Positions 5,055 through 36,686 of a stretch of DNA of 64,000 bases are shown here, piece by piece (positions within the stretch are counted from its first letter, which is position 1; the number at the start of each line of letters is the position of its first letter). The stretch is from an uncultured Anaeroplasma sp. (GTDB taxonomy: Bacteria > Bacillota_I > Bacilli_A > Acholeplasmatales > Anaeroplasmataceae). The DNA lies in the NCBI GenBank assembly GCA_947592005.1, contig CANQDJ010000001.1, positions 11,035-75,034 on the forward strand, read 5' to 3'. Made by a program: the position numbers and the translations under genes. The notes below the pieces were generated by a model. The model saw nothing but the letters and a program-made list of their open reading frames with translations. It did not search any database and had not been told where the DNA came from.

Positions 5055-5112
5055 TGCATTTTCTTCTTTTTTTTTATTTTGTTTTTGGTATTGTATCTTG
5101 GAGGGTGATAAG

Positions 5113-6789
5113 ATGCCGAAGGCAAAGGTTAAATTAAAAGAAGAAAAGAAGAATTATTTTAGTATTGCGGTAGGGATCTTTTTGACTATATTTTGTGTGC
5201 TTATGATTGGAAGAGTGGGGAATTTTAAATTTGTTTATTTGCTTCTTCGAATCGTATTCGGTGATTTTTCTATATTTGTGTTGTTGTTTACTGTTTTTTA
5301 TTCTATTAAAGATTTGGTTTTGAATAAAAAAGTAGATCTGCATCATATTTTCTTTTTTGGGGTGATTTTGATTTATTTCGGATTATCTGTCTTTGCCCAT
5401 TTGGGTTTATATGATGCTTTGATGATGACCAATCGAACTGTTATGAGTAAGACGGTTGCCTTGTATGGTAGGTATTTTCGCCATTTCGAACAGGATTTCA
5501 GTTGTGGAGGAGGAATTGTTGTCGCTTTGGTTCTACAGGTTATTATGTTTATCGGTGGAAAGATCGGAGCGATTCTTTTGGCGATTGGGTGTATCGGTGT
5601 CGGGATATGTTATATTATTGATTTTAAATTGTTTTCTTTTATTAAGGGTGGTAGATTGAAACAAATTCCTATTCAATTTTATCACTCTGTTCGAGATTAT
5701 TTTAAGAATATGCATTATCCGAAAACACAAAGTAAGAGTCCTAAGATTCCGTTGTCGATTTTGATGGATAATGAAGAAGTGGTGAATTTTACTTTACAAC
5801 AGGAGATCAATAAAGAGCGATTTGAAGCGTTAAAGACGTATATCAGCAAGAATCATATTTATTGTGTTTGTGATTCGTTTCAAACTTCTTATACGTCTTC
5901 AAGATTTGTTTTAAAGTTGGCACATAAGAGTGAAAGTATTATTTCGGAGATTAGTGGTTTTTTTAATAAGTGTTGTTTTTTTATTAAGAATGATTTGGTG
6001 GTTTATGTGGAAATTTCTAATCAATTTAAAAAACTTTTGACTTTGAAAAGTATTTTATTGGCTCATGATAATCCCGGTGGGATTGTGTTGGGTATGGATA
6101 TAGATAATCATGGGATAGAATTGGAGATTCAACAAGGAAAAACACTTTGTGTATTGGGAGATTTGACAAGTGGAGTGAAAACGTTTATTCGTTCTTTTGT
6201 CGCTTCACTTTTGTTTAAGGGGTATCTTCCGGAAGATATTTATTTTTATGATTTATTTCACGAATTTGGAATTTTAAACGGCAGTCGTCTACATTATATT
6301 AATAATGATCGTTCGGCTTCTATTGCGTTTGATGAAGCGTTTAGTGAGTATGAGAGAAGAAGTGAAGTGATGAAGTATTTGGAAGTAGATACGATTGGAG
6401 AAGCGAATAAGAAGATTAGGACGATGGGGAGTGAATATGAGGAAATGAAGCCGATTTTTCATATTATCTTTTTTAATGTTTCGATGTTTGATACGAATAT
6501 TTTACAGAAGTTATCGTATATTCTTCAATTCGGAATTAAAGTGGGAATGATTATTTGTGTGATTATAAGAGATAGAATAGGACTACATAAAATCAATATG
6601 GGAAATTGTGATATTGTTTCTTTTTATTTGGCAGATGTGGCTACTTCGGTAAAAGTGTTTGGGTGTGATATTGCTTGTAGATTACAAAAAAAAGGAGATT
6701 TCCTTTACCAAACCAAAAATAGGTTGTATCATGGACAAACTCCTTATATTTCTTTAGATGATTTTGAAAAAATCATTCATCGTCTTTAA
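5113..6789 (+). CDS. FtsK/SpoIIIE-like membrane protein with degenerate ATPase motifs and no gamma domain
   Basis: N-terminal TM segments, GGGIVV motif, EYERR and RLQKKGDFLY...GQTPYIS align with the SpoIIIE motor; Walker A reads GDLTSGVKT and Walker B reads IIFFN. Confidence 0.75.
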   Translation: MPKAKVKLKEEKKNYFSIAVGIFLTIFCVLMIGRVGNFKFVYLLLRIVFGDFSIFVLLFTVFYSIKDLVLNKKVDLHHIFFFGVILIYFGLSVFAHLGLYDALMMTNRTVMSKTVALYGRYFRHFEQDFSCGGGIVVALVLQVIMFIGGKIGAILLAIGCIGVGICYIIDFKLFSFIKGGRLKQIPIQFYHSVRDYFKNMHYPKTQSKSPKIPLSILMDNEEVVNFTLQQEINKERFEALKTYISKNHIYCVCDSFQTSYTSSRFVLKLAHKSESIISEISGFFNKCCFFIKNDLVVYVEISNQFKKLLTLKSILLAHDNPGGIVLGMDIDNHGIELEIQQGKTLCVLGDLTSGVKTFIRSFVASLLFKGYLPEDIYFYDLFHEFGILNGSRLHYINNDRSASIAFDEAFSEYERRSEVMKYLEVDTIGEANKKIRTMGSEYEEMKPIFHIIFFNVSMFDTNILQKLSYILQFGIKVGMIICVIIRDRIGLHKINMGNCDIVSFYLADVATSVKVFGCDIACRLQKKGDFLYQTKNRLYHGQTPYISLDDFEKIIHRL

Positions 6790-21343: not shown

Positions 21344-22317
21344 ATTTTATGTTTGAGAATAGATTTCTTTTGGATAGTATTGTTTTAAGTGGTGAATTGG
21401 AAAAAGAAGGACCGATAGGAGATTATATTGATTACAGTTCAACGTTTATAAATACTTCGTTTGAAAATAGCGAGATAGCCATGTTATATCAAAGTATGGA
21501 TATGTTATTGGAAAAATTAAATCTAACGCAGGAAGAAATAGATTTGGCAATCGGGGGAGAATTATCCAATCAACTGACGACAACCAGTTATACGATGAGA
21601 AAATTATGGATTAGTTTAATCGGTATTTATTCGGCATGTTCTACGATAGCGTTGGGAATCGGATTGGCAAGTTTACTTTTGGATAATCCGAAGATTCAAA
21701 ATATTTTGGTTTTTACTTCCAGCAATAATCAAAGTGCGGAGCGACAATTTCGAAATCCCAATGAGTATGGAGGAGAAAAAGAAAATACGCAAACTTTTAC
21801 GTCTACAATAGCCGCCAGTTGCATTATAACAAAGAAAAAATCGCCGATTCGCATATCTTCATTTACGATTGGTAAAGTGGTAGATATAGGATTTTCTGAT
21901 GCTTTGGATTTTGGACGAGCAATGGCACCAGCCGCTATTGAAACGATTTTGGAGCATTTTAAGGAAAGAAGGACAAAGCCTTCGGATTATGATTTGATAT
22001 TAACGGGGGATTTATCGAGTTTTGGATATGAACTTGTTTTAAAGGCATTGGAAGAGCGGTTTGGAGAAATTCGTAATTATAGAGATTGCGGACTTTTGTT
22101 ATATGATATCGATCGACAACCTGTTTTTGCAGGAGGAAGCGGTCCGGGAACTAGTGCGGCAGTTTTGTTATCCTATATAAAAAAAGAAATGCTTATTCGG
22201 AAATATCGGCGAGTTCTTTTATGTGCGACAGGAGCACTTATGAATCCGACAATGATCAATCAAAAGAATTCGTTACCTTGTATCGCTCATGCTATAGAGT
22301 TGGAGGTGGCAGAATGA
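21340..22317 (+). CDS. spoVAD: Stage V sporulation protein AD
   Basis: EKEGPIGDYID, ACST, SAERQFRNPNEYG, GRAMAPAA, AGGSG, ATGALM. Confidence 0.93.
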   Translation: MNFMFENRFLLDSIVLSGELEKEGPIGDYIDYSSTFINTSFENSEIAMLYQSMDMLLEKLNLTQEEIDLAIGGELSNQLTTTSYTMRKLWISLIGIYSACSTIALGIGLASLLLDNPKIQNILVFTSSNNQSAERQFRNPNEYGGEKENTQTFTSTIAASCIITKKKSPIRISSFTIGKVVDIGFSDALDFGRAMAPAAIETILEHFKERRTKPSDYDLILTGDLSSFGYELVLKALEERFGEIRNYRDCGLLLYDIDRQPVFAGGSGPGTSAAVLLSYIKKEMLIRKYRRVLLCATGALMNPTMINQKNSLPCIAHAIELEVAE

Positions 22318-22664
22318 TTTTTCTTTGTGCTTTTATGATTGGTGGCGGAATATGTGCACTCGGTGAACTCATAAAGTGTCTGCTTAAATGGACTACAGGA
22401 CATATAACGGTTTTGTTCGTATCACTAGGAACATTGTTGGATTTTAATCATTTTTATGAAAAATTGATTGATATCGGCGGGGCAGGAGCACTTTTGCCGA
22501 TCACCAGTTTTGGTCATTCTTTGGCTCATGCAAGTTTTGAGAAGGCTCAACAAGTGGGATTTATAGGTATTTTTACGGGTATGTTTGATAAGACGTCCGG
22601 TGGAATCGCCTTTACTATATTTATAGCGGTTATAATTGCTTTGTTATTTAAACCGAAATCTTAA
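22314..22664 (+). CDS. spoVAE: Stage V sporulation protein AE (SpoVAEb)
   Basis: AFMIGGGIC, GGAGALLPITSFGHSL, LLFKPKS; ATGA overlap with spoVAD. Confidence 0.9.
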   Translation: MIFLCAFMIGGGICALGELIKCLLKWTTGHITVLFVSLGTLLDFNHFYEKLIDIGGAGALLPITSFGHSLAHASFEKAQQVGFIGIFTGMFDKTSGGIAFTIFIAVIIALLFKPKS

Positions 22665-22715: not shown

Positions 22716-22735
22716 AAAAAAGAAGACAATTATAA
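22716..22735 (+). repeat. Left 20-bp direct repeat of the island
   Basis: AAAAAAGAAGACAATTATAA, identical to 34964-34983. Confidence 0.8.
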
Positions 22736-22771
22736 TTCCTTAATTTTTTTAGAACGTTAAATCTAGATACG

Positions 22772-22793
22772 GGATTGTGGAGTTCCACAGTCC
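22772..22793. repeat. Short hairpin of the GG(A)CTGTG/CACAG(T)CC family
   Basis: GGATTGTGG-agtt-CCACAGTCC. Confidence 0.45.
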
Positions 22794-23361
22794 ATATTTT
22801 ACATAAAAATGGGTATTTATTACAAGATACTACAATTTTCTTGACAAATATCTTTAATTTCACTTAAAATCAAAATGAATTATGAAAAAAATGACGATTG
22901 AAAAAATAATTCCTTTGACAAAACTAGGAAACAGGAATGTACAAATATGCTTAGGTAAAAATGCATAGATGTAACATCTAATGAGAAGCAAAGTATGGTT
23001 TAGAACAAGTAGCAAACCAAAGGAATCAAGATGCAAAATGAATTTCTTTCATTTCTATTTTATAAAAATATGAAAGAGTTTATATTTTTACTTATCAAGT
23101 GTATTTAACTTAAATAAATCAAATTTGATAGTAATAAAAAATATTGATATTTCAAAAAAGGATTCATTTATGAATTATTAAAACAATTTCAGTAAATTCA
23201 AGGGAATTAAAAGAAATTTGTTCAAAGTTTGAAGCCTTTTTAGAAAATTAGTAAATAGAAAAAGTAATTGAACTATTACCTAGCGTATAAAAAACTTATC
23301 AAAGATGATTTTCAAATCATTTATAAAAAAACTTAATTCTTGTGTAGAGGGAGGTATAAAT

Positions 23362-24549
23362 ATGGCAGTTGCAGAAGTTATTAAGTTTGAGGGCCCGCAA
23401 GATGCCCTAGTGTGGAAAAATGGTGGTAGAGAATATATGATTAGTGGGAATGAGAAATTTAATGCTCTTTCTCAATTAATTGTTGAAGAATTCCATGAAG
23501 CGATTTTATTTTCTAATGGTATGGCATTGGATTTATTTAAGGCAGGACGCTATACATTATCTACCCAGAATATTCCTATGCTATCTAAAATGTATGAGAA
23601 CATAGTAGATGGATCACCATTTCCTTGTAAAGTTTACTTTATCAATAAAGTTCATCAATTAGAATTGAAATGGGGTACACAAGGAGGAATCACTTTAAAT
23701 GATCCGATTTATGACATTTTTCTTCATGTTGGTTGTTGTGGGACTATGGCAGTTAGAATCTCTGACTCAAGGAAATTTTTATTAAAATTTGTAGGAAATA
23801 AAGATGTTTTTGAAAATAAGGATCTTTTAATGAATTTAAGAGGTATTATTTCTTCCAATGTAAAAAATTTCATATCAAAAATAATGATTCAAGGTAAAGT
23901 AAGCTTTTTTGATATGAATGCTCATATCTTTGATATTGGGCAACTTGTTGCTAAAGTTTTAGGAACAATTTTTGATGGATATGGATTATCTATCGAACAA
24001 TTTAATATTGAAACCATTGACGTACCAAAAGAAGATTATGAAGAAATTAATAAGGCAAAGAGTTTAAATACATCTCGTAAGATCCAAGGATTTACATGGC
24101 AAGAAGAGCAAATGAATAAGATTTTAGATGATGCTGCTAAAAATGAAGGTGCCGGTAATATGATGGGAACTGGTATGGGTATTGGAATGGGATTTGGTAT
24201 GGGTGCCCCTATGGGACAAGCCTTTGGAAATATGGGCAATTCCATTTTTGGAGAAACAAAAATTAACTCAGGGAAAGATTCTAATCAAACTTCCAAGCCA
24301 ACTCAAATCAATAATAATGGTGGAGAAAATTTAAATATTAATAACTTCTTTAATGCCGGTGCTAAAGATCAATCTAATGATCAATCGACTACTATTTGTC
24401 CTTCATGTGGAGCAAAATTAGCAAATGGTGTTGCATTCTGTTCATTCTGTGGAGCGAAGCAACAGTTAACTGCTGTTTGTCCAACATGCCATGCTCAAGT
24501 AGAAGGTTCAGCTATGTTCTGTTCATTTTGTGGTACTAAATTAAAATAA
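23362..24549 (+). CDS. SPFH/Band-7 domain protein with C-terminal double zinc ribbon (YdjI-like)
   Basis: SQLIVEEFHEAILF, FPCKVYFINK and KWGT motifs; GMGIGMGFGMG; four CxxC pairs (CPSC, CSFC, CPTC, CSFC); GGAGG RBS before ATG 23362. Confidence 0.85.
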   Translation: MAVAEVIKFEGPQDALVWKNGGREYMISGNEKFNALSQLIVEEFHEAILFSNGMALDLFKAGRYTLSTQNIPMLSKMYENIVDGSPFPCKVYFINKVHQLELKWGTQGGITLNDPIYDIFLHVGCCGTMAVRISDSRKFLLKFVGNKDVFENKDLLMNLRGIISSNVKNFISKIMIQGKVSFFDMNAHIFDIGQLVAKVLGTIFDGYGLSIEQFNIETIDVPKEDYEEINKAKSLNTSRKIQGFTWQEEQMNKILDDAAKNEGAGNMMGTGMGIGMGFGMGAPMGQAFGNMGNSIFGETKINSGKDSNQTSKPTQINNNGGENLNINNFFNAGAKDQSNDQSTTICPSCGAKLANGVAFCSFCGAKQQLTAVCPTCHAQVEGSAMFCSFCGTKLK

Positions 24550-24564
24550 GGTGGGAATGAAAAT

Positions 24565-25296
24565 ATGAAAATGAGTACAAGAAAGTATAATTATATTGGG
24601 TTAATTATCGCCTATAGCATTTTATTTGTGTTATTTAACGTTTTAATATTTGTAATTTTTAAGCCTTGGAATTTTGAAAAAACTGCTTGTATAGCAGCAT
24701 TTTGGTGGTCATATGCATTTTTTACTATAGCATTTTTAGCTCAATTAAGTTCTCTATTTGTAATTGATAGAAAAAAAGAAATTACGGCTGTTTTCATGGG
24801 AATTCCATTATTTTATATTTCTATTGGATATTTCCTAGCTGCAACATTTGTATCGGCTTTATTTATGGTATTGGCTTCATTTAAAGTGGAAACACCGCTA
24901 GAACTTGTTATCGTATTGCAAATTGTCTTATTGGGGCTTTACTTAGTAGCATTTATTTTAGCTTTGTTAACTAAGCGAACAATTAGTGATATAGGCGAAC
25001 ATCAAAAAGAAAATGTTGCTCATATTCGTATAATGGTTGATAAAGTTGAGTTGTGTGCTGAAATGATAGAGGATCAAAGTACTAAAAAGAGCATAATGGA
25101 ATTTGCAGAAAATATAAGATACTCTGATCCAATGAGTACAAAAGTAGTAGAAAATTTAGATAAAAAATTGAATTTGCTTATTGATGAATTAAAGTCTGCT
25201 ACATTACTAAAAGACTTAGATAAGATACAACTTTTATTAAGAGAAGGGAACCTTACTTTATTAGAAAGAAATAAGATGATTGTAAGTAATAAATAA
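24565..25296 (+). CDS. Hypothetical multi-TM protein with cytoplasmic helical tail
   Basis: About five hydrophobic helices, then a helical domain containing IRYSDPMS. Confidence 0.8.
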   Translation: MKMSTRKYNYIGLIIAYSILFVLFNVLIFVIFKPWNFEKTACIAAFWWSYAFFTIAFLAQLSSLFVIDRKKEITAVFMGIPLFYISIGYFLAATFVSALFMVLASFKVETPLELVIVLQIVLLGLYLVAFILALLTKRTISDIGEHQKENVAHIRIMVDKVELCAEMIEDQSTKKSIMEFAENIRYSDPMSTKVVENLDKKLNLLIDELKSATLLKDLDKIQLLLREGNLTLLERNKMIVSNK

Positions 25297-25308
25297 GGGG
25301 GGACTTTT

Positions 25309-27303
25309 ATGGCAATTAAACTATCAACCCATAGATGTGTGGATTGCTTTGGCAAGTTAGAGTTTAATAAAATACAAAAAGTATTTGAATGCCCATATTG
25401 TGGAAGAGTTTATGAAAAAGATATGCAATTTGAAAAAATTCAAATTGATGGATTGGCTGGAATAAATGATACTGCTCGTGCAGTTTTATTAGATATTGCC
25501 AATCAAAATTTTGATAGTGCATGCAAAAATTTAGATGAATGTGAAAAACTAAATCACAATTATATCGGGACATGGATTGCAAATATTTGCTACTACCTCT
25601 TTATGGCCAGTGCTAATAAATCCGATGCAAAGGTATATGTTGCCAAATCAAAATATTATTTAGATCAGATCAAAGAAGAGCGTTCGAATGTTGAAGAAGA
25701 TGAAAAAAATTTTTATGATGTTTTGACACAGCCTGAAATCTATGCAGTAGTTTATGCAACCTTTCTAAATGTAGGATTATTAGAAAGAGCATCTTATATT
25801 GCAAATTTCTTAGAATTTGATAAAATTTTAAATTCTAATTTAAATAAAATATTACTGAACATCTGCTTAAAAGCAAATGCATTTTCAGAAGTTGATCAAA
25901 TTGTGTCTAATATAGATTTTATTGATAAGCGATATACTTTGTATGAAGTACTCAAACATTATCCGGATACAGAGCAAAAAATAAGTAATATTAAACATTT
26001 ATTTGAAGCAAATGCATTTACCTACAAAGATACATCGCTTGTTAAAAAATATATAGAAGAAACAAATGATTCGTCTATAACAAAATTAGAAGTAATGGTA
26101 CAAGCATTTCAATTAAAAATGGATATAGATATATCTGAAATTATTGACAATATTCTTGATGAAAAATGTGATGATAAATTAGTGGAAAGAACATTCTCAG
26201 CTATTAAAAATGTTAAACTATCGGAAACAGATGCATATAAACTACTAGACTATTGTATGAGTGATCAATGTACAAGTTGTAAAGTTGCAAAGGCAGGTAT
26301 CGACACTTTAAAGGCAAACGGGAGTATATACGAGATACGTGCACAAAGTATAATAAACCTATTCAACTATTCAAAGTTAAATATTGAAGAAAAGAATGAA
26401 CTTGTAAGCCAAATATTTCAGAATTTTAGAGTCAGTCAAAAAGGCATGGATCTATTGAGTAACTTTTTGCTTCTTGCATATGAAGATGATGAGGAAAATA
26501 GATATAAAGTTATATGTCCTATTTTGGAAAAAAGTACTTCTATAACTCTAAATACAATGACAGATTATTTAATAGGAAAAAATAAAGATGGTAATTTTAA
26601 AATAGACATTTCTAAATTGATTTTTAGTTTGAAAATAAATGAGGTATATTTTAAAGGATTACTATCAAATTATCTTTTGAATACAACAGACTCTATTCAT
26701 GTGGTTTTTGAGATTATAAAGGAATTAGCCGCCAAGAAATGTGATATAAATCAAGAAGCATTAAAAGTTTTAATTGTAAAATATGATCTTAGTTCGGATA
26801 TGCTCACATTTGTGTTTAATATGAATATTCAAGTATCAAATGATCTTTTAGAAATTTATTTAAAAAAAGCAATTTCTAATGGAACACTTAATGCTAATGT
26901 AATCGCAAAGTTACTAAATTACAAAACTAACATATCAAATAAAACGATTTCTGATTTTATATTAAAAGTAAAAGATAATCAGATTAAAACTAATTTCATA
27001 GGAAAACTTATTCAGAATTGTTCTGACCTGCGATTTGCATCTTCCTATACATGCTCTTATTTAGGCCATAGTATTGTTTGCAATTTTATACAAAATTATT
27101 TTTTTACTTCAGTTGACGAGCCAAGTACCCGTTTCATCATTTGTAAAGAACTTATGAATTATAAAATTAAGCTCTCAGATGATATTTTAGTAGATAAAAA
27201 GAAAAAATCATTTAAAAAATACATTTTAGAAAATAAATCTAACTTATCAACTGAGGTGGTTGATTTATGTGATTCTTTAGGTGTATTTAAAATGTTTTTT
27301 TAA
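25309..27303 (+). CDS. Zn-ribbon plus alpha-helical repeat protein
   Basis: N-terminal CVDC...CPYC ribbon; recurring L..YL....D....K..I..L units. Confidence 0.75.
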   Translation: MAIKLSTHRCVDCFGKLEFNKIQKVFECPYCGRVYEKDMQFEKIQIDGLAGINDTARAVLLDIANQNFDSACKNLDECEKLNHNYIGTWIANICYYLFMASANKSDAKVYVAKSKYYLDQIKEERSNVEEDEKNFYDVLTQPEIYAVVYATFLNVGLLERASYIANFLEFDKILNSNLNKILLNICLKANAFSEVDQIVSNIDFIDKRYTLYEVLKHYPDTEQKISNIKHLFEANAFTYKDTSLVKKYIEETNDSSITKLEVMVQAFQLKMDIDISEIIDNILDEKCDDKLVERTFSAIKNVKLSETDAYKLLDYCMSDQCTSCKVAKAGIDTLKANGSIYEIRAQSIINLFNYSKLNIEEKNELVSQIFQNFRVSQKGMDLLSNFLLLAYEDDEENRYKVICPILEKSTSITLNTMTDYLIGKNKDGNFKIDISKLIFSLKINEVYFKGLLSNYLLNTTDSIHVVFEIIKELAAKKCDINQEALKVLIVKYDLSSDMLTFVFNMNIQVSNDLLEIYLKKAISNGTLNANVIAKLLNYKTNISNKTISDFILKVKDNQIKTNFIGKLIQNCSDLRFASSYTCSYLGHSIVCNFIQNYFFTSVDEPSTRFIICKELMNYKIKLSDDILVDKKKKSFKKYILENKSNLSTEVVDLCDSLGVFKMFF

Positions 27304-27322
27304 GAAAGAGAGATGATAAGGA

Positions 27323-29119
27323 ATGACAGAAGAAGAATATAGAAGAGAACAAGAAGAACGAGAACAGTTAATTAATCAGTATAATTCTTTAGTAGAAAAA
27401 TATAATCAACTTGTTGTTTATGCAGAACAGATTGAAGCAGAATTAAATACTGCTCAAGCAAATACAATAACTATTATTAGTAACGCAAAAGCAATGGCAA
27501 CACATGTGCTTCCTCGCTTGGATAATTCTATTACAATGGCAGATGAAGTACAAAATTTAACTTATGATGTTATGAAGGCTATAGAGGATTTGAAGAATAG
27601 ATATTTTAAAATTAAAAATGTCAGCACCTCTTCTAAAAAATTAACAGAATTAGATGATCTTTATAACCGTTTGTATCGTTTTTATAATAAACTTCGCAAA
27701 ATTTCATTAGCATATGTTATTGGAGTTGATTCAAATATTATAAGCAATGAAACACTTAGAGTTGAAGTTGAAAAACAGCAATTAATGAATAGTGATTATT
27801 GGTTATCATATGCCTTGTCTGCTGTAATGCTGTGGATAAATGATGAAAAAAAGGCATCTACACGAGCAGTTGAGAAAGCATTAGAAATGGACGAATATAA
27901 AACGTCTTTATATTTCATGCTAATCAACTTACGTTTTGGTCGAACAACTGCTGCCCAAAAATGGTATGAAGTATTTTCTAAAGGGGTAGATATTTTCAAT
28001 ATTCGTCCCGAATGGGAATTTATTTTACAAGCATATTTACATCATGGTTTTGGTTATGACAAAGAATTTGAGCGAAGGGTTAAAAAGCAATTTACAGATC
28101 TTTTGGAGGAAATGCGAAAATCTTTTGCTAGATATGAAAGTAAGGTTATAGAAAAAGTAACAGAATATGGCTTTGCCTTCCCGTATTCAACAGCCAAGAC
28201 ATATTCATATCTACAACTATATTGTAAAGATTATGGTTTATTACTAGAATTGCTAACTTGTGCTGAAAAAAATGGAGAATTAGCAAAATGGTATGCTAGT
28301 ATTTATGAACAAGATGATACCTCTGCAGATACCTTAAAAGAAAACATTGAGAATGTTTTATATGATCTTGTATCAGAATATGATTCAAAAGAATATGAAA
28401 TAATTAAGCAAATTAAATATCACGAATATGTTATAAAATCAAAAGGTGATATTGCTATGGCAAATCGTATGGTTAATATGCAAAATGCTGAATCCGAAGA
28501 GAAAATCACATTAGATGAATTAATGTTTAATTTTGCTTTTGCAGATCCAAATGATAAAGTAGATAATAGATTACAAAAATTTGCTTTATCGTTTATGATT
28601 GATTTAATTAAAAAGGGGTTTGCAGAATATCAAATAAAATATCGAGATAAGGAAAAAGAAAAATATACATTTTATATAGATGGGTGTACTTTTACAGGAA
28701 ATGATTTAACTATAGATGAATCTCGTAAAGCAATTGCAGATTATTATAAAGCTAACAAAAGAAAACTTCTTTTTGCAGATAAAAAATATACAGGCTTATT
28801 ATGGGCTTCTATCGGTTTTACTGCTTTAACCATTTTGATGACGGTGATTATTATTTTGATGAAGAGATTTGTTACTGCTACAACAATTATATTTGCTATA
28901 TCAGTAGTTTTAACAATATTATTTTGGATTTTATGGGCATTACGCCGACAATCACGTACAAAAAACATTCAAAAGAGAATGCTTGAATCGCTTGAAAAAT
29001 TAAATAAAGTAAATGAGGATTTTATTCAATGGAAAAAAGATTATCAAAATTCAGATGTAGAACAAAACGGCTTGCAAGAAACACTAAACAATTATAAATG
29101 GGAGGAAGAACATGAGTAA
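27323..29119 (+). CDS. Coiled-coil/TPR-like/2TM protein, paralog 1
   Basis: DYWLSYAL..W...KTSLYFMLINLRFGR motif; two C-terminal TM helices. Confidence 0.8.
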   Translation: MTEEEYRREQEEREQLINQYNSLVEKYNQLVVYAEQIEAELNTAQANTITIISNAKAMATHVLPRLDNSITMADEVQNLTYDVMKAIEDLKNRYFKIKNVSTSSKKLTELDDLYNRLYRFYNKLRKISLAYVIGVDSNIISNETLRVEVEKQQLMNSDYWLSYALSAVMLWINDEKKASTRAVEKALEMDEYKTSLYFMLINLRFGRTTAAQKWYEVFSKGVDIFNIRPEWEFILQAYLHHGFGYDKEFERRVKKQFTDLLEEMRKSFARYESKVIEKVTEYGFAFPYSTAKTYSYLQLYCKDYGLLLELLTCAEKNGELAKWYASIYEQDDTSADTLKENIENVLYDLVSEYDSKEYEIIKQIKYHEYVIKSKGDIAMANRMVNMQNAESEEKITLDELMFNFAFADPNDKVDNRLQKFALSFMIDLIKKGFAEYQIKYRDKEKEKYTFYIDGCTFTGNDLTIDESRKAIADYYKANKRKLLFADKKYTGLLWASIGFTALTILMTVIIILMKRFVTATTIIFAISVVLTILFWILWALRRQSRTKNIQKRMLESLEKLNKVNEDFIQWKKDYQNSDVEQNGLQETLNNYKWEEEHE

Positions 29120-30746
29120 TACAAATCAAATCTTAAATGAATTGAATGCTACAGTTGGTGGTTTTACTGCTTCAGTAGATGTTAAAGTTTCAAAAGTAAA
29201 TGAGATAACTGATCAAATAAGAAAAAATGCTGATACAACATTTCAAGAAATTAATAATTTTAAGCAAAGTATGATTGAAAATGAGCAGATGCAAAGTGCT
29301 CAAGAAAACATATTGAGATTAAACCAAATTATTAGAGAAAGATTTTCTGATTATGATAGTATTAGAAAAACAGTAATGGGTGTAGTAAAAGATTTTGATA
29401 TCGATCTTGTTAGAAATAAGACCATTACCGAATTATCTGAAGAATTATGGATGACAAGTTCTAGATATTGGTTATCTTATACCTTAATAGCCATCAGTGC
29501 TTGGGCAAGTGATAATAAAGGGGTTGCTAAAAATGCAGTGTCCGAATCGTATAGAGCAGATAAAATAAAAACATCATTATTCTTTTGCTTAATGAATTTA
29601 CGATTTAATCGTGTTGATGTTGCAAGAGAGTGGCTATGTGAATATTTCAACTCTATTATTCCAGAAGATATCAAAGATGAAACGGCCATTTTGCTTCAAT
29701 CTTATATTAATGGATTGTTTGGAATAGATAAAGAAATCGAATATGTCGTTAAGGACGTGGTTGATAGTTGGATTGAAGCCATAAATATCGTTGATGAAAA
29801 TAATGAAAAGTTATCTGCAATGTTTTTAGAATACATTCAAAACATTCCACCTAAAATTGATTTTAAGTCCGAGTACTTAAAACAATATTGTAAAGCTTAT
29901 CCAAATATGGGTTTTCCATATGGTGAGGCAAAGAAGTATGATGTTTTAATAAAAAAAATAAAATCATTAGATGTAGAAAATATTATTCAAAATGCTGCTG
30001 ATTATAAAGCAAGAGTAGATGCTGTTTTAAGAGATTTAATTACAAATTATGATGCTGAAGAATTGGAGTTGAAGCAACAACAGGAATATTATAATTTAGT
30101 CATTGAAAACAAAGGAAAAGAAGAAATAGCCGAACAACAATTTAATGCAATATTAGAAAAAAGATCTTCCAAACAAAACATTGGAGAAAAATGTGTTGAA
30201 TGGGCACTTTATTCAAAAAGTGATTCTATTAATATACATGTTCAAAAATTTGGTTTTCAAAATACAAAAAATTGGTTTTTATCAGCTATAAATACGTGGT
30301 CAAATGAGTTCGAAAAAGAATTTCCAGATGAATATCCAATTCAAGTGGAAGAATGGGAATGTGTATCTAATGGAGATGATTTAGAGGAACAAGAAATTAG
30401 TTTAAGAGCATATTTAGAGAAAAATAAATTTAAGATAAAATATGTTAATAAACCAAATATTATCTCTCTCATATTATTTGTAATTCTACTTACAGTTAGT
30501 ATTTTTGTAAAAGTGAAATTTGATGCACCAACTCCTGTATTTTTAGGAATTCTTGGAGGCTCTCTATTATTCCTTTTGATATTAGCTATTAGAATATTTA
30601 CAGCTTCCTCTAGATTTAATAAGAAAGTTAAATATTTGCTTTCTTTGTTAACAGGTACGATGAGTGAGTTAACTGAATATCGTAAAACGTATGCAGAAAA
30701 TAAAGATAAAAAAGCTGAACTTTTTGCTTTAATAGAACAATTATAA
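29112..30746 (+). CDS. Coiled-coil/TPR-like/2TM protein, paralog 2
   Basis: RYWLSYTL..W...KTSLFFCLMNLRFNR motif; two C-terminal TM helices. Confidence 0.8.
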   Translation: MSNTNQILNELNATVGGFTASVDVKVSKVNEITDQIRKNADTTFQEINNFKQSMIENEQMQSAQENILRLNQIIRERFSDYDSIRKTVMGVVKDFDIDLVRNKTITELSEELWMTSSRYWLSYTLIAISAWASDNKGVAKNAVSESYRADKIKTSLFFCLMNLRFNRVDVAREWLCEYFNSIIPEDIKDETAILLQSYINGLFGIDKEIEYVVKDVVDSWIEAINIVDENNEKLSAMFLEYIQNIPPKIDFKSEYLKQYCKAYPNMGFPYGEAKKYDVLIKKIKSLDVENIIQNAADYKARVDAVLRDLITNYDAEELELKQQQEYYNLVIENKGKEEIAEQQFNAILEKRSSKQNIGEKCVEWALYSKSDSINIHVQKFGFQNTKNWFLSAINTWSNEFEKEFPDEYPIQVEEWECVSNGDDLEEQEISLRAYLEKNKFKIKYVNKPNIISLILFVILLTVSIFVKVKFDAPTPVFLGILGGSLLFLLILAIRIFTASSRFNKKVKYLLSLLTGTMSELTEYRKTYAENKDKKAELFALIEQL

Positions 30747-30790
30747 TATAGAATTCAGGGAAAAATTTTAGTAAGAATAAGGAGAAAAAT

Positions 30791-30997
30791 ATGGAAAAGA
30801 ATGAAAAAAGCGTAAATGCTACAGAAAATGCTACAGAAAATGTTACAGAAAATGCTACAGAAACTGAAAACTTTTTAGATAGTTTTAATAGTGATGAGGA
30901 AGAAATTATGGATTTATCTACTGAAAAACTAGATGAATTAAATAAGAAACTTCCAAATTGGAGTATTGAACCACCTCATAAATTTCTTAATAAATAA
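30791..30997 (+). CDS. Small acidic protein with NATE tandem repeats
   Basis: AAGGAG RBS; stop/start overlap (TAATG) with the next ORF. Confidence 0.7.
   Translation: MEKNEKSVNATENATENVTENATETENFLDSFNSDEEEIMDLSTEKLDELNKKLPNWSIEPPHKFLNK
30815..30862 (+). repeat. 12-bp tandem repeat, four copies
   Basis: AATGCTACAGAA x2, AATGTTACAGAA, AATGCTACAGAA. Confidence 0.9.
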
Positions 30998-31491
30998 TGA
31001 GAAAAAAGGAAGGTCAAATCAATTATTATAGTGATTGGCTTAAGATATTTAATAAAATAAAATCTACTGGTAATTTCTCTGATTTCTATTTAGACATGGT
31101 GGTTGGGAATCTAAGAGATGTTCAATTCAGTTATAATAATTTTTGTAAAGAATTAGTTAATTTTATTAATTTTATTTTAAATTACTATATTAAAAAGATG
31201 AATGAAAGAATTAATTTTTATATATCTCAAACAAATTTAAACTCTATTGTATATTCCATCGATTATTTTTTCTTGCAAATAAAGAAAATCAAATTTTATG
31301 AGTGTTTACAATTTTTAAAAAAAGAGTTTAAGGTAGAATTGACTTTAGAGATAGATAAAACTATTGATAACTATCTAAAGCAATTAGAGAATTATATTTA
31401 TTCTTCATCTATGAACAATTCTTTTTTTACAGAATTACTTTATATTATTAAAAAAAATAAAGGGATGGTTTTTAATGGCGTGTTATCTTGA
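30997..31491 (+). CDS. Hypothetical protein (164 aa)
   Basis: Overlaps both neighbouring genes (translational coupling); no motif recognised. Confidence 0.65.
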   Translation: MRKKEGQINYYSDWLKIFNKIKSTGNFSDFYLDMVVGNLRDVQFSYNNFCKELVNFINFILNYYIKKMNERINFYISQTNLNSIVYSIDYFFLQIKKIKFYECLQFLKKEFKVELTLEIDKTIDNYLKQLENYIYSSSMNNSFFTELLYIIKKNKGMVFNGVLS

Positions 31492-32974
31492 GGTTTTAAA
31501 AGAAATAGAAATTTACCTTTATGCACGAACACCTTTGATTATTTTAAAAAGTGGAGAAAGAGATCGTGTAGAAAGATTATTAGGTGAAGTGAGTAGGAAT
31601 ATAAAACATGATATATATGGATACAGTTCCATTAGACAATTATATAAAATGAATTCTTTATCAACAATTTGTTCTACAGAAGAGCCTTTACAATATATTT
31701 CTCATGCATTTAAGAAAAAAAGAGGTGAAATATATTCTTTGATAGATTTTGGTTATTTAGAAAATGATAATCTTTATAGTAGAGATATTTTAAATTTAAT
31801 TTATACGGCAAGAGAAAATGAAGGAACTCTCATTCTTGTTTCAGATGATTTGATATGGAATAGAATTAGTAATTTAGGCTTGATATGTAATTTAAATTAT
31901 CCTTCTCAAAAAGAACGTATTGAGCAAATCGAAGCCTTCGTTGAAAAATACAAGAAACTTTATAAAAGTTGTTGGACTAAAGAAGAAATAATATTAGCTT
32001 CTACTGTATTAAAAGGATTTTCTGAAATTCAAATAGAGAATATACTTTCTGCCAATTTAATTAAAAAAAATGGATTTTATAAAGAAGATATTTTACTTTT
32101 GGCCAATCAAAAACAATTAATTTATGGAAATATATCTAATTTGAAACAAATTATTATAGATAAAAATATTGAATTGTATGGATTAGAAAACTTTAAAAAA
32201 AGAATGGATGAAAAAAAGAAAGTTTTCTTTGCAGATGAAAAATTGCTAGAAAAATATAACATTACATATCCTAAAGGAGTATTATTAACAGGTATTCCTG
32301 GCTGTGGGAAATCTTTATCAGCAAAATATATTGCTGCCAAATGGAATTTACAGTTGTTTAAATTCGACATTGATACAATTTTTAATAAATATGTGGGCGA
32401 GAGTGAACGAAAAATGCAGGAGGCACTCGCTTATGCAGATCGTATGGCACCATGTATTCTTTGGATAGATGAAATAGAAAAGGCATTATCAATTTCTTCT
32501 GATGGAAATGACACAGGGAAAAGGATTATGGGGCAATTCTTGTTTTGGCTTCAAGAATCTAAAAGTAGGGTATTCTTAATTGCAACGGCAAACGATATTT
32601 CAAAATTACCTCCGGAACTCTTTAGAAAAGGAAGATTTTCAGAAATATTTTTTATTGATTTGCCTAATGAGGTTGAAAGAAAAGAATCTTTAAAATATTA
32701 TATTCAAAAATCTCTGCATATGGATTTGAATGAAAATGAAATGACACAACTTTTAGACATTACAAATGGATTTAGTTATGCGGATTTAGAAAGTTCCATA
32801 AAAGAAATAGCCCAATCATTTATTATTAATGAGGAATTCAATTTGGATTTCAATTTAATTAAAAACAAACTACTAGAAGTTATTCCATATGAAAGAACTA
32901 ATCCTGACACTGTAAAAAAAAGTAGACAATGGGGAAAAGAAAGAGCAACATTAGCCTCTTTAGAAAGGAATTAA
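31475..32974 (+). CDS. Ycf46-like classical-clade AAA ATPase
   Basis: Walker A GIPGCGKS, pore loop KYVGESE, Walker B ILWIDEIEK, SRH TANDISKLPPELFRKGRF; degenerate N-terminal module. Confidence 0.92.
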   Translation: MACYLEVLKEIEIYLYARTPLIILKSGERDRVERLLGEVSRNIKHDIYGYSSIRQLYKMNSLSTICSTEEPLQYISHAFKKKRGEIYSLIDFGYLENDNLYSRDILNLIYTARENEGTLILVSDDLIWNRISNLGLICNLNYPSQKERIEQIEAFVEKYKKLYKSCWTKEEIILASTVLKGFSEIQIENILSANLIKKNGFYKEDILLLANQKQLIYGNISNLKQIIIDKNIELYGLENFKKRMDEKKKVFFADEKLLEKYNITYPKGVLLTGIPGCGKSLSAKYIAAKWNLQLFKFDIDTIFNKYVGESERKMQEALAYADRMAPCILWIDEIEKALSISSDGNDTGKRIMGQFLFWLQESKSRVFLIATANDISKLPPELFRKGRFSEIFFIDLPNEVERKESLKYYIQKSLHMDLNENEMTQLLDITNGFSYADLESSIKEIAQSFIINEEFNLDFNLIKNKLLEVIPYERTNPDTVKKSRQWGKERATLASLERN

Positions 32975-32975
32975 A

Positions 32976-34769
32976 ATGGCAAATGAAGATATAAAAAGTA
33001 AGATAAATGAAATGAATCATGCAATCAGTCGTATTCAAAGTGAAATTGCTATAATTGAAGATGAACTGAATGCTATTTCTCAAAGTGCGTATGCAAATAA
33101 GAATTTGTTGATTGCATCTAGTGCTCTAGTTAATAACTCTATGGAAAACAACAGCAATGTCTTAGTATATTCTAATAATATGATAAGACAAACTTATGAT
33201 GCTCAATTACAAATTAAAGAGTTATTCTTTATTTTTAAAGATATAGAAACTGCAAATAAGAAAATTAGGGCTTTAAATAATAAATTATTCTATGAGTTTA
33301 AAAATCAATCTAAGGTTAGAAAAATAGTTACTGGTTTTTTAGATAATTTAAACCTTGATTTGGTTGATAATGAAAGAATTTATAAGGCCATAGAAAAGGA
33401 ACATCTTCAAACTCCTGATTTTTGGCTAACTTATGTTCTTTTAGCAATTATGGCTTGGAAGCAAGAGGATAGAAAACAGGTTGAAAAATGTATGAATGGA
33501 GCCTTAACTTTAAATAAGAAATCGACTACCGTTTTCATGATGTATTTTAATTTGATAATAGGAAGAGTTGAACCTGCATTAAAGTGGTTTAGTCTTTATA
33601 AGGAAATGGAAAAAGTTGGAAAAGATGATAAAACATTATTAATGTTAGTTTGTTCAATTTCTAATAAAATTAATCAAATAGAAGAAACTACAGATGTTAT
33701 GACAAAAGAAATTTTGAATTATATTCAATCTGAAGTTTCTAAAGGTATGGAGGAAGTAAATCAAGCTGAAGTAGTAAGCAATATTGAAAAATATTTAGAA
33801 TCTTTTGATTTAAAAGAAACAATGGCTTATGATAATTATCGTAAATATGTTAAAGATTATCAAGATATGGCAGATGCTTTATCTTTAGCTAAAAATAATG
33901 CTGAAATTTTAGATTATTTTGACGAACTATCACATGTTCTTTTAAATGAAAGAAATACATATTTAGATGAATATATTCAAGAGGTAATAAATGAACCTTG
34001 TGAAGGCGAAAAAGACATTGTCGAAGAGATTGCTTATAATGAGGAAATTATAAAAACAGTTAACATTATAAAAGAAAGAAATGGTTTAGTAACTACTAAC
34101 TCTTTTAAAGAGTTAGCTAAAGAAAAATTCGAAAAGAAAAAGATACATGATGAGGTTACCTTAAATTCATTTTTAGAAATTTATAATTGGACTTATGGAG
34201 GAAAAAATTTAAAGATAACTACTCTTGCTAAATGGAATTTATTTGTTTTAAATAAACCTTTTACAGTTGCTGCATATGAGCAATATTGTCAAAAGTATCA
34301 ATCATTAAATCATAAGACCCATCAAATTTCGATTGGAGATTTTTCATGCAAAACAGAATTTAAGAATCAAGAAAAGGATATTGAAAATGTAAATACATAT
34401 ATTAATGATAGAAAGCAATATCTTTTAAAGAAGGCAATAAAGCCTATGTTCTATGTTGGTATAGGACTTGCAATATTATGTTTGGTATTAATGATAATGT
34501 GTCTTACAATGATAAAATCAGTTCAGACTAAAAATATTCTCTCAATTTTAAGTGGTGTTGGCATAGGTGTATTTGCTTTAGTGGCTGTTTGGGCCTATGT
34601 AAAAAATATATTTAAAAAGAAAAATATCGTAAATAAAATGTCAAATGAACAAGCAAAAATTAAAGATATTGTTATTCATCTTTATGAAGAAAAGGCTGAT
34701 TATGATAGGGAATTCCTCCAAGCTGATGATATATCAAATCAAATAAAAGCATTTTTTGAAACATTTTGA
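32976..34769 (+). CDS. Coiled-coil/TPR-like/2TM protein, paralog 3
   Basis: DFWLTYVL..W...STTVFMMYFNLIIGR motif; two C-terminal TM helices. Confidence 0.8.
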   Translation: MANEDIKSKINEMNHAISRIQSEIAIIEDELNAISQSAYANKNLLIASSALVNNSMENNSNVLVYSNNMIRQTYDAQLQIKELFFIFKDIETANKKIRALNNKLFYEFKNQSKVRKIVTGFLDNLNLDLVDNERIYKAIEKEHLQTPDFWLTYVLLAIMAWKQEDRKQVEKCMNGALTLNKKSTTVFMMYFNLIIGRVEPALKWFSLYKEMEKVGKDDKTLLMLVCSISNKINQIEETTDVMTKEILNYIQSEVSKGMEEVNQAEVVSNIEKYLESFDLKETMAYDNYRKYVKDYQDMADALSLAKNNAEILDYFDELSHVLLNERNTYLDEYIQEVINEPCEGEKDIVEEIAYNEEIIKTVNIIKERNGLVTTNSFKELAKEKFEKKKIHDEVTLNSFLEIYNWTYGGKNLKITTLAKWNLFVLNKPFTVAAYEQYCQKYQSLNHKTHQISIGDFSCKTEFKNQEKDIENVNTYINDRKQYLLKKAIKPMFYVGIGLAILCLVLMIMCLTMIKSVQTKNILSILSGVGIGVFALVAVWAYVKNIFKKKNIVNKMSNEQAKIKDIVIHLYEEKADYDREFLQADDISNQIKAFFETF

Positions 34770-34916
34770 TAGTGCTATTTAATAGAAATATCCCTAATTA
34801 TTTTTTGACTTTAGAAATTATAAAAGGATAATTGTTAAGGATATTTTTCCAATCTGTAGGAATTCATAAAAAATGGAGAAATCAATCTTCTTCCATTAAA
34901 TACTATAACTTACTTA

Positions 34917-34943
34917 CAATCTCGCATAAAGCGGGATTGTTTT
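34917..34943 (+). terminator. Terminator at the island right end
   Basis: CAATCTCGC-ataaa-GCGGGATTG followed by TTTT. Confidence 0.65.
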
Positions 34944-34963
34944 GACGCTTTAAAATATAGGAA

Positions 34964-34983
34964 AAAAAAGAAGACAATTATAA
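34964..34983 (+). repeat. Right 20-bp direct repeat of the island
   Basis: Identical to 22716-22735; contains the probable -35 (AAGACA) of the downstream promoter, 17 nt from TG-n-TAAAAT. Confidence 0.8.
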
Positions 34984-35038
34984 AAAAATATGTTAAAATT
35001 AAATAAATAAGGAAAAAGTATAAAAATTGGAGGTATAT

Positions 35039-35767
35039 ATGAATAATATAAAAGACGATGAATTGGATAAATTTCTTGAATCAATCAATAAAACTACAGT
35101 TACTGCTAGTATTGATGAAGAAACGTTATATAAGGTGGCTTGTTCATGTGTGGAATCCGATATGGTTTCTATAAATAGTATTCAAAAAGAATTTCTTTTT
35201 GGATTTAGTCGAGCTAATGCAATTGTAGATGAATTGGAGAGAAGAGGAATTATTTCTAAGAAAAATTCACAAACTGGTAAAAGAAAAGTTTTAGTAAATC
35301 AAGAAGAATTAGACAAAATGTTTTTAGAAAAAAAGGAAGATTTCTTTTTTGATAATGATGAATGTTTTTTGAAAAATATAAGTTCGGAGAACAGAGAAAT
35401 ATTAAAAAAATATAACTTAATGAAGCCACTTCGTGAAATGTTGAAAAATCAAAGTACCTTTTCTCTTGATGAGGTAGATTATGAGGAGGAGTTAGAATTC
35501 GGAACAATCTTTGGGTATATATATGGTACGTTTACTTTTAATGAACCTCTTACACTCGAAAGATTGGAATTGGCAAAAGGAAATATCAATTGTATTATGA
35601 GTGTGAATGCTTGTTCAACTTTTCCGGCTTCCGAAGTAAACAATTTAATAAGTAAAGTAAGGAATTTGGCAGAGCTAGATGACCTTATATGTGGTATTGA
35701 AATAGATGATAGTTTGAAAGATGGAGAATTTAAAATTTTGGCATTATTTGTATATTTTCCGTTTTAG
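35039..35767 (+). CDS. FtsK gamma domain fused to an FtsZ C-terminal-like domain
   Basis: VSINSIQKEFLFGFSRANAIVDELERRGIIS matches the FtsK gamma winged helix; SLDEVDY and IMSVNA...EV...ICGIEIDDSLKDGEFKI match the FtsZ T7 loop and C-domain. Confidence 0.7.
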   Translation: MNNIKDDELDKFLESINKTTVTASIDEETLYKVACSCVESDMVSINSIQKEFLFGFSRANAIVDELERRGIISKKNSQTGKRKVLVNQEELDKMFLEKKEDFFFDNDECFLKNISSENREILKKYNLMKPLREMLKNQSTFSLDEVDYEEELEFGTIFGYIYGTFTFNEPLTLERLELAKGNINCIMSVNACSTFPASEVNNLISKVRNLAELDDLICGIEIDDSLKDGEFKILALFVYFPF

Positions 35768-35885: not shown

Positions 35886-36686
35886 ATGGAAGAAGCAAAG
35901 AAAAAGACAATTTTTTCTCCGAATAAAATAGTGGCGATTATTTTTTATATTCTCAGTATGTTTGTGTTGGGAAGTATAATCACTATTATAATCGGTATCT
36001 TGTTGGCGATGTTTCACGATGATAATGTAGGATTGGTCATTGAAAGTTTTACGACATTGGATTTATCGGAATACAGCGATTCTATACGAAAAATTAATGC
36101 GATGGCTCAAGGTTGGGGTAATTTCATTGTTTATTTATTGTGTTTTGTAGTGGTTGTATTTTATATGCGAGATGAAGTGATAAAGGATTTTAAGGATTTG
36201 GTTGGTAGAAAAGAAAAACATATGGTATGGATTCCTCTTTTTACTTTGTTGTTTATGATTGTTACTTATGCGGTTGAAATATTGATTGGATATTTTGTTC
36301 GGTCTTCCGCCAATCAGGAAACCATTGAAACGATTATTCAAGACGGTGGTATGATTCCTATGATTATTGCGACAGTATTGTTCGCACCGGTAGTAGAAGA
36401 GTTGATTTATCGAAAGGCTATATTTTCTTATTTTAAGAAATATAGTATAGGGGCTTGTTATTTGATTTCGACTGTGTTTTTTATGTTACCGCATATGATT
36501 TCCAGTGATTTTGGCGATATCCGCATTTGGGTATTACAAGCGATTCCTTATTTGGTTAGTGGCCTATTATTGTGTGTGGTTTATCATAAGTCGCAAGAAA
36601 ATGTGTTTGCGTCTATTATTGTTCATTTTGTTAATAATTTTATAGCGTCTTTATTGATAATTACGGAAATGAATATGGGGGTATAA
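35886..36686 (+). CDS. CPBP (CAAX/Abi) intramembrane metalloprotease
   Basis: APVVEELIYR, FMLPH, SIIVHFVNN. Confidence 0.9.
   Translation: MEEAKKKTIFSPNKIVAIIFYILSMFVLGSIITIIIGILLAMFHDDNVGLVIESFTTLDLSEYSDSIRKINAMAQGWGNFIVYLLCFVVVVFYMRDEVIKDFKDLVGRKEKHMVWIPLFTLLFMIVTYAVEILIGYFVRSSANQETIETIIQDGGMIPMIIATVLFAPVVEELIYRKAIFSYFKKYSIGACYLISTVFFMLPHMISSDFGDIRIWVLQAIPYLVSGLLLCVVYHKSQENVFASIIVHFVNNFIASLLIITEMNMGV

Follow-up and report, generated by a model that had tools for sequence, protein, structure and literature searches.

To our knowledge, the well-studied protein regulators of FtsZ (SulA, MciZ, MinC, SlmA, EzrA, phage Kil and Gp0.4) are all unrelated to FtsZ. SulA binds the T7 (bottom) face of the FtsZ subunit. 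Noc has a ParB-like fold, SlmA and RefZ have a TetR fold, and all three are core, site-specific factors; TubR is a separate protein that binds the tail of TubZ. MciZ, too, binds the T7 face of FtsZ (PMC8936486). Here we describe P0001, a protein encoded in a 64,000-nucleotide stretch of DNA (the window) from an uncultured gut Anaeroplasma sp. (GenBank assembly GCA_947592005.1, contig CANQDJ010000001.1). Judged from its sequence, P0001 joins an FtsK-gamma winged helix to a stand-alone FtsZ GTPase-activating domain (GAD), which we call ZC, and it probably binds the FtsZ of its own cell as a stand-in for the filament's next subunit. An original prediction, made from the letters of the window, had cast it as a candidate DNA-tethered inhibitor of FtsZ. 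P0001 is an accessory, lineage-specific protein. In the full-text literature we found no description of a protein combining gamma with FtsZ_C or of stand-alone FtsZ C-domain proteins, and P0001 would be an FtsZ-interacting regulator built by a new principle.

An FtsK-gamma winged helix fused to an FtsZ-like domain

The gene, gamma-ZC, and the parts of its product are arranged as follows.

35039..35767, + strand: gamma-ZC gene encoding P0001, 242 amino acids plus stop, ATG start (open reading frame call)
35117..35296, + strand: FtsK-gamma-type winged helix, residues 27-86, with recognition helix FSRANAIVDELE (Pfam PF09397)
35297..35371, + strand: linker, residues 87-111, one helix followed by the acidic/aromatic stretch DFFFDNDECF (AlphaFold2)
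35372..35764, + strand: ZC domain, residues 112-242 (approximate start), comprising the end of H7, T7, H8, S7, S8, H10, S9 and S10

The N-terminal part is an FtsK-gamma domain, as originally proposed. Pfam FtsK_gamma (PF09397) matched P0001 with an E value of 7.5e-13 (48.4 bits against a cut-off of 30.6), structures of E. coli FtsK gamma in the PDB matched at 6e-5, and the AlphaFold2 model has a predicted local distance difference test (pLDDT) score of ~90 over this domain. Pfam detected no FtsK/SpoIIIE motor in P0001, in which gamma is not a motor appendage, and neither Pfam nor NCBIfam gave a ParB or TetR match. The P0001 gamma shares 40-50% identity with its counterparts in FtsK proteins of the genus, so that both halves of the protein seem, on sequence grounds, to have been drawn from the lineage's own division genes.

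The way in which this domain would read DNA probably differs from that of FtsK. The residues mutated in KOPS-blind E. coli FtsK are R1300, E1303 and E1306 (PMC2680272). They correspond to A61, D64 and E67 of P0001, in which the arginine is gone and E1303 is replaced by aspartate, leaving the KOPS recognition set incomplete. Given this alanine at a position at which same-genus FtsK gammas keep arginine or lysine, FtsK-like reading of the polar motifs KOPS and SRS, which the original prediction had assumed, is unlikely.

The C-terminal part had been described as FtsZ-like from H7 onward, and this description was borne out by several lines of evidence. A family profile built from an alignment of 16 ZC members matched almost exclusively FtsZ among all PDB sequences; its top match was Spiroplasma FtsZ at 1.9e-11, with profile positions 25-132 on FtsZ residues 194-311, a span that runs from the end of H7 to S10. 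The same profile matched the FtsZ of nearly every genome of the order, mostly at 1e-8 to 1e-12 over profile positions 26-132. BLASTP of P0001 against FtsZ of the same genus aligned residues 181-228 with FtsZ 258-306 (37% identity over 49 residues, E 3e-6), and a search of related genomes gave a weak direct match from ZC to the FtsZ of a congener.

Structure prediction gave the same picture. The AlphaFold2 model, built on 14 sequences, has a mean pLDDT of 79.5, with 85-92 over residues 150-240 and below 50 over linker residues 99-109. Its predicted secondary structure (helices at 145-154 and 197-210; strands at 156-166, 182-191, 215-222 and 230-240) forms a four-stranded sheet with H8 and H10 after the T7 loop, as in the GAD fold of FtsZ. 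In a Foldseek search of the PDB, the top 50 matches of the model were all FtsZ, with probability 1.00, and the best local superpositions covered 135-139 columns at 4-5 Å. The two domains of FtsZ are known to fold independently (PMC7327170).

By sequence and predicted fold, ZC is a member of the FtsZ_C homology family, yet P0001 is not an FtsZ. The GTP-binding N-terminal domain is absent, as had been noted: there is no PF00091 match in Pfam, hence no nucleotide-binding domain with the tubulin signature GGGTG(S/T)G, and gamma occupies the N-terminal part. Also missing from ZC are helix H9, the C-terminal linker and the tail peptide. Residues 90-242 matched no family in Pfam, NCBIfam or PADLOC, and PHROGs matched the gamma part only. 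We considered a split FtsZ with its N-terminal half encoded nearby and rejected it for this family: a hidden Markov model (HMM) of the N-domain, run with --max against the open reading frames of 26 ZC loci and against the whole genome, gave a best E value of 0.3. With no FtsZ N-domain partner near ZC genes or in the genome, the cell's own FtsZ is the obvious partner of ZC.

The most conserved residues of ZC lie on the T7 side

We aligned 36 non-identical ZC domains with three FtsZ domains. The ZC domains share a median pairwise identity of 19%, and the following motifs and positions stand out.

35459..35482, + strand: T7-loop motif FSLDEVDY, residues 141-148 (alignment)
35681..35695, + strand: S9 motif DLICG, residues 215-219 (alignment)
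D147: aspartate in 33 of 36, equivalent to S. aureus FtsZ D213, among the three lowest-entropy columns
D144: aspartate in 32 of 36, equivalent to S. aureus FtsZ D210, among the three lowest-entropy columns
G219: glycine in 30 of 36, equivalent to S. aureus FtsZ G295 in S9, the third most conserved column

Both T7 aspartates named in the original prediction are thus present, D147 and D144 being the two lowest-entropy columns of the family, and the pair is kept in 31 of the 36 relatives; the three sequence blocks that the prediction quoted lie in the aligned T7, S8 and S9 segments. The other well-conserved columns are all hydrophobic core.

In FtsZ, the catalytic water is held by D210 and D213, which together with N208 are also required for assembly and hydrolysis (PMC8936486). 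The backbone of S9 at M292 and F294 touches the lower subunit, and the T7-side longitudinal contact regions (H10, S9, H8 and T7) all lie in the GAD (PMC8936486). ZC retains these four contact elements. As aligned and modelled, it bears the whole T7 face of an FtsZ subunit and none of the opposite face, and the conservation pattern indicates that selection acted precisely on the residues that would work in trans on the GTP of a neighbour. The retained aspartate pair, S9 glycine and contact elements make a subunit-mimic contact with the GTP face of FtsZ a well-founded inference.

These data also bear on whether ZC still has anything to do with FtsZ. It could instead have become an oligomerisation or ligand-binding domain of a winged-helix DNA binder, such as a transcription factor or nucleoid protein, its DxxD motif serving another purpose, for example metal or nucleotide binding. 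The low identity to FtsZ (~17-19%), the loss of H9, weak MarR/SarA-like matches on the winged helix (Pfam and NCBIfam) and the existence of ZC proteins that stand alone or follow unrelated N termini would suit such a change of use. We nevertheless judge it decidedly unlikely: the only conserved polar residues of ZC are the T7 aspartates and interface glycine of FtsZ, every T7-face element is retained, and the partner domains come from FtsK and not from transcription-factor families.

A subunit-mimic model for P0001

With a confidence that falls a little short of even, we propose that P0001 is a subunit mimic, in which ZC caps or sequesters FtsZ and gamma puts this activity on DNA. ZC would dock on FtsZ at the face that carries GTP, be it that of a free monomer or that of the nucleotide-exposed filament end, and its D144 and D147 would complete the GTPase site of the docked FtsZ. 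Offering no nucleotide face to a next subunit, ZC would end the filament or sequester the monomer and promote futile GTP hydrolysis. Growth of FtsZ filaments has been proposed to occur at the T7-exposed (bottom) end, which takes in the GTP face of the monomer (PMC8936486); a GTP face occupied by ZC should therefore block elongation. Gamma would place the activity on DNA, probably without FtsK-type reading of KOPS or SRS, and Z-ring assembly would, on balance, be disfavoured wherever DNA is coated with the protein.

Several observations weigh against this model. Of the two Pfam families by which the original prediction could be checked, PF09397 was found on P0001 itself, whereas FtsZ_C (PF12327) gave no match on P0001 at E <= 10; the latter passed its 27-bit cut-off on two relatives (L052, 39.4 bits; L017, 30.3 bits) and stayed below it on two others (L050 and L039). 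Helix H9 is missing, one T7 aspartate is absent from 5 of the 36 relatives, the position of N208 is S142 in P0001 (asparagine in 16 of 36) and that of F294 is C218. DNA binding by a gamma lacking the R1300-equivalent arginine may be weak or non-specific, and we know of no tight DNA binding by isolated gamma. A gene of patchy occurrence within an inserted low-GC segment is as readily explained by a conflict or accessory role as by one in division regulation, and one relative, a fusion to an FtsK motor described below, suggests recruitment rather than inhibition.

A further difficulty is that no ftsZ was found in the host assembly (97% complete, 76 contigs) by Pfam, tblastn or a six-frame HMM search. 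We considered a host without FtsZ, which would void the hypothesis, and judged an assembly gap likelier. The gene is present in 40 of 40 relatives tested, the host encodes the FtsZ anchor SepF (C39:8884-9048), and the contigs break at a dispersed repeat common to many contig ends (which the start of C70 has in common with 9 other ends, and the end of C19 with 13); the absence of ftsZ is therefore likely an assembly gap. Host counterparts of the genes on either side of ftsZ in congeners are distributed over contigs C19, C70 and C54. On C54, at the place where congeners have ftsZ next to a gene for a 1140-residue protein, we observed open reading frames with an RHS-type core end (YCYCYNNPVMYADPSGH) followed by small open reading frames, in an arrangement resembling a polymorphic-toxin cassette (C54:5300-8808).

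The window also contains, at 5098-6789 (+ strand), a gene that follows an RNase J-like gene, in the place of SpoIIIE/FtsK, and encodes a 563-residue membrane protein. This protein scores 17.8 bits with Pfam FtsK_SpoIIIE, below the cut-off, its Walker motifs are degenerate and it lacks gamma, as the original prediction had remarked. The connection drawn from this to P0001 finds no support, because a normal 759-residue FtsK with gamma is encoded on contig C15 (C15:2902-3087).

ZC proteins occur in several architectures

A word-indexed search of 5.8 billion proteins with P0001 returned nothing but P0001 itself, for which that collection holds an identical cluster. An exhaustive HMMER search with residues 88-242 found few relatives: two stand-alone proteins of 132 residues, three that contain gamma and one of 558 residues with FtsK motor, gamma and ZC. 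Further relatives, including some with the reverse domain order, were found in related genomes, giving the following architectures.

gamma-ZC: P0001, P0004, P0009, P0010 and an abundant group of 228 residues (P0013-P0037), with many near-identical alleles in P0016-P0037
FtsK motor-gamma-ZC: P0008, 558 residues, at L034:8001-9677 on a 326-kb scaffold, preceded by an overlapping open reading frame of 156 residues
ZC-ZC-gamma (365 residues) and ZC-gamma-gamma (~340 residues): loci L039:4910-6007, L042:5046-6068 and L047:5069-6088
ZC-gamma: the reverse of the order in P0001
ZC alone: 119-150 residues
ZC behind unrelated N termini

A ZC gene that is not ftsZ was present in ~22 of the 201 sampled genomes of the order, mostly in the genus and family of the window, and some genomes carry two copies. 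The family is small and mostly confined to one family of gut metagenome-assembled genomes labelled Anaeroplasmataceae; one congener was recovered from a human gut metagenome. In both orders and also in double dose, gamma is much the most frequent partner of ZC, and the FFxDxE..F motif of the P0001 linker recurs in P0008-P0010.

This recurrent pairing raises the possibility that ZC is a targeting module that holds FtsZ, as a filament end or a monomer, and so recruits DNA held by gamma, or FtsK-type functions, to the site of division. Such an adaptor might link the terminus or other DNA to the Z ring, activate Xer recombination at the septum without a motor of its own, or, like TubR-TubZ, attach DNA to the end at which treadmilling filaments shrink. 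P0008, in which the Walker A and B motifs of the motor are intact, is as compatible with recruitment to FtsZ as with inhibition, and its architecture would be sensible if ZC localises a DNA translocase to FtsZ. Isolated gamma is able to activate XerCD, and in several species the ZC gene lies in chromosomal neighbourhoods of housekeeping type. We still consider recruitment unlikely, if worth keeping in view, as a T7-face mimic would bind only monomers or one filament end and decorate a ring poorly, the catalytic aspartates are kept although mere tethering does not require them, the gene is accessory and the KOPS-reading arginine is lost. A bolder reading, to which we give little credence, is that ZC represents a new class of cytoskeletal regulator, a natural half-subunit serving as a trans-acting GTPase-activating cap for FtsZ, and that gamma attaches DNA to the nucleotide-exposed end, at which treadmilling filaments shrink, so that the division filament would push DNA away from the closing septum or pull it along with the septum.

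Two further FtsZ-like forms occur in the genus. One genome (G014) encodes a 231-residue mini FtsZ (L052:3260-3955, on its contig C54) with a shrunken N-terminal part of ~110 residues that lacks GTP-binding motifs, followed by an FtsZ_C domain (39.4 bits) with H9; this protein may represent an evolutionary stage between FtsZ and proteins made of ZC only. G012-G014 also encode a second FtsZ paralogue, ~337 residues long. The mini FtsZ shows that FtsZ paralogues erode in the genus, and some ZC relatives have lost one T7 aspartate, as would be expected if P0001 were a functionless remnant of duplicated ftsZ and ftsK fragments. This seems scarcely credible for a gene with an intact frame, a ribosome-binding site and a promoter-like site, whose product has a confidently predicted fold and whose family persists across genera with its key residues conserved and with repeated, independent fusion orders.

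The gamma-ZC gene lies in a variable low-GC segment

In three congeners (G007, G023 and G018), homologues of the genes at 22221-22664 and 35886-36686 are only ~120-175 nt apart, and the whole 22.7-35.9 kb stretch is therefore extra DNA here. The 13 kb absent from these genomes (22716-35767) hold a nine-gene SPFH/Zn-ribbon/2TM-paralogue/AAA island and the gamma-ZC gene, with the following signals.

22716..22735, + strand: left copy of an exact 20-bp direct repeat, AAAAAAGAAGACAATTATAA, bounding the nine-gene island
34964..34983, + strand: right copy of the same 20-bp repeat, 55 nt before the ATG of gamma-ZC
34971..34999, + strand: sigma-70-like promoter-like site AAGACA-17 nt-TAAAAT with an upstream TG (consensus scan; a pattern match only, which does not imply function)
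35029..35033, + strand: ribosome-binding site GGAGG, 5 nt upstream of the gamma-ZC ATG (read from the sequence)

The repeats bound the island only; gamma-ZC lies just outside the right copy, within which the -35 element of its promoter-like site falls. In GC content, the island (27.6%) and gamma-ZC (28.8%) both fall below the genome (33.3%). A functional link between gamma-ZC and the SPFH-AAA island was considered and rejected, as no island gene recurs at other ZC loci, and we therefore consider that a single variable spot carries them as separate cargo. The AAA ATPase of the island (31475-32974, + strand) matches PADLOC IetA models at 3.8e-33; NCBIfam IteA and CdvC-like models also match it but do not reach their cut-offs. 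No family match was obtained for the remaining island proteins. The patchy presence of the gene in the order and the absence of the segment from the three congeners mark it as accessory, which makes a core role of the nucleoid-occlusion or RefZ-like kind put forward in the original prediction unlikely.

Neighbours differ among ZC loci and include housekeeping genes, one type IV coupling protein and XRE-type helix-turn-helix (XRE-HTH) membrane proteins. An all-against-all comparison of neighbours revealed no conserved operon partner, only scattered XRE-HTH membrane proteins and locus-specific pairs. The XRE-HTH proteins, which are mutually related and have C-terminal membrane segments, adjoin ZC genes at four or five otherwise unrelated loci and may reflect chance or a recurring partner.

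L021:5242-6024, L025:6620-7162, L037:4162-4704, L052:4181-5059 and L043:3344-4756: XRE-HTH neighbours of ZC genes

At a further locus (L020:3141-6268, on contig C58 of G019), a ZC-gamma gene starts 6 nt after a gene for a TraG/VirD4-type type IV coupling protein, with ClpP encoded upstream and a GGDEF protein downstream. It is the sole ZC locus with a conjugation gene.

A setting of this kind invites the idea of a conflict module, either a host-encoded FtsZ decoy or guard that absorbs or senses phage FtsZ inhibitors or mobile-element cargo that stalls host division. Many phage-encoded FtsZ inhibitors bind the FtsZ C-domain. Complexes of FtsZ with phage proteins are known immune triggers (PMC13423816). 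The patchy distribution, several paralogues per genome and fast divergence of ZC genes point the same way, as do the low GC content and variable presence of the 13-kb segment beside an island with an IetA-like ATPase, the coupling protein gene directly before one relative and the XRE-HTH and WYL neighbours at several loci. Against this, tblastn of INPHARED, scans of IMG/VR and a fold search of BFVD yielded no viral gamma-ZC or ZC-only relatives, no PHROG matched ZC, PADLOC gave nothing except a weak winged-helix match, the neighbouring genes vary and there is no attached effector domain. We therefore assign a conflict role a low probability.

Comparison with known systems

If the subunit-mimic model is true, P0001 would be the first subunit-mimic regulator of a bacterial tubulin, and a ready-made top-face capper with which to identify the growing end of the filament and to probe the coupling between GTP hydrolysis and treadmilling. 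That ZC has been joined to gamma repeatedly, in one case together with a complete FtsK motor, suggests that in gut Bacilli with small genomes the Z ring is physically linked to chromosome handling in a way not described before. ZC proteins are small (130-240 residues) and the key mutants are obvious, which opens them to direct testing with standard FtsZ assays.

Each half of P0001 has a clear relative from which it departs. ZC is homologous to FtsZ_C (PF12327) from the end of H7 through S10 and keeps the T7 aspartate pair and the S9 glycine, but it is fused to a DNA-binding domain and is not part of a polymerising GTPase. The winged helix scores above the Pfam cut-off for the gamma of FtsK/SpoIIIE (PF09397), but lacks both the translocase motor and the KOPS-reading arginine. 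P0008, a soluble FtsK motor with gamma, resembles the division-site DNA translocases SftA and FtsK; it differs in ending in ZC, and P0001 differs in having no motor.

Among regulators, MciZ and SulA share the proposed logic, in which one longitudinal interface is occupied and filaments cannot extend. They are not homologous to ZC, however, and whereas they bind the T7 face, ZC would itself present a T7 face, occupy the nucleotide face and possibly activate hydrolysis. Noc, SlmA and RefZ share the concept of a DNA binder that acts on FtsZ assembly near the chromosome, but P0001 has neither a ParB-like nor a TetR fold and is accessory. TubR-TubZ likewise couples a winged-helix DNA binder to a tubulin-family filament, and end-tracking is a possible analogue; read as a half-subunit cap, P0001 would be a one-polypeptide counterpart of such end-tracking, made from FtsZ and FtsK parts. 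Unlike in TubR-TubZ, the filament-binding part of P0001 would copy the filament subunit's own domain, within a single chain.

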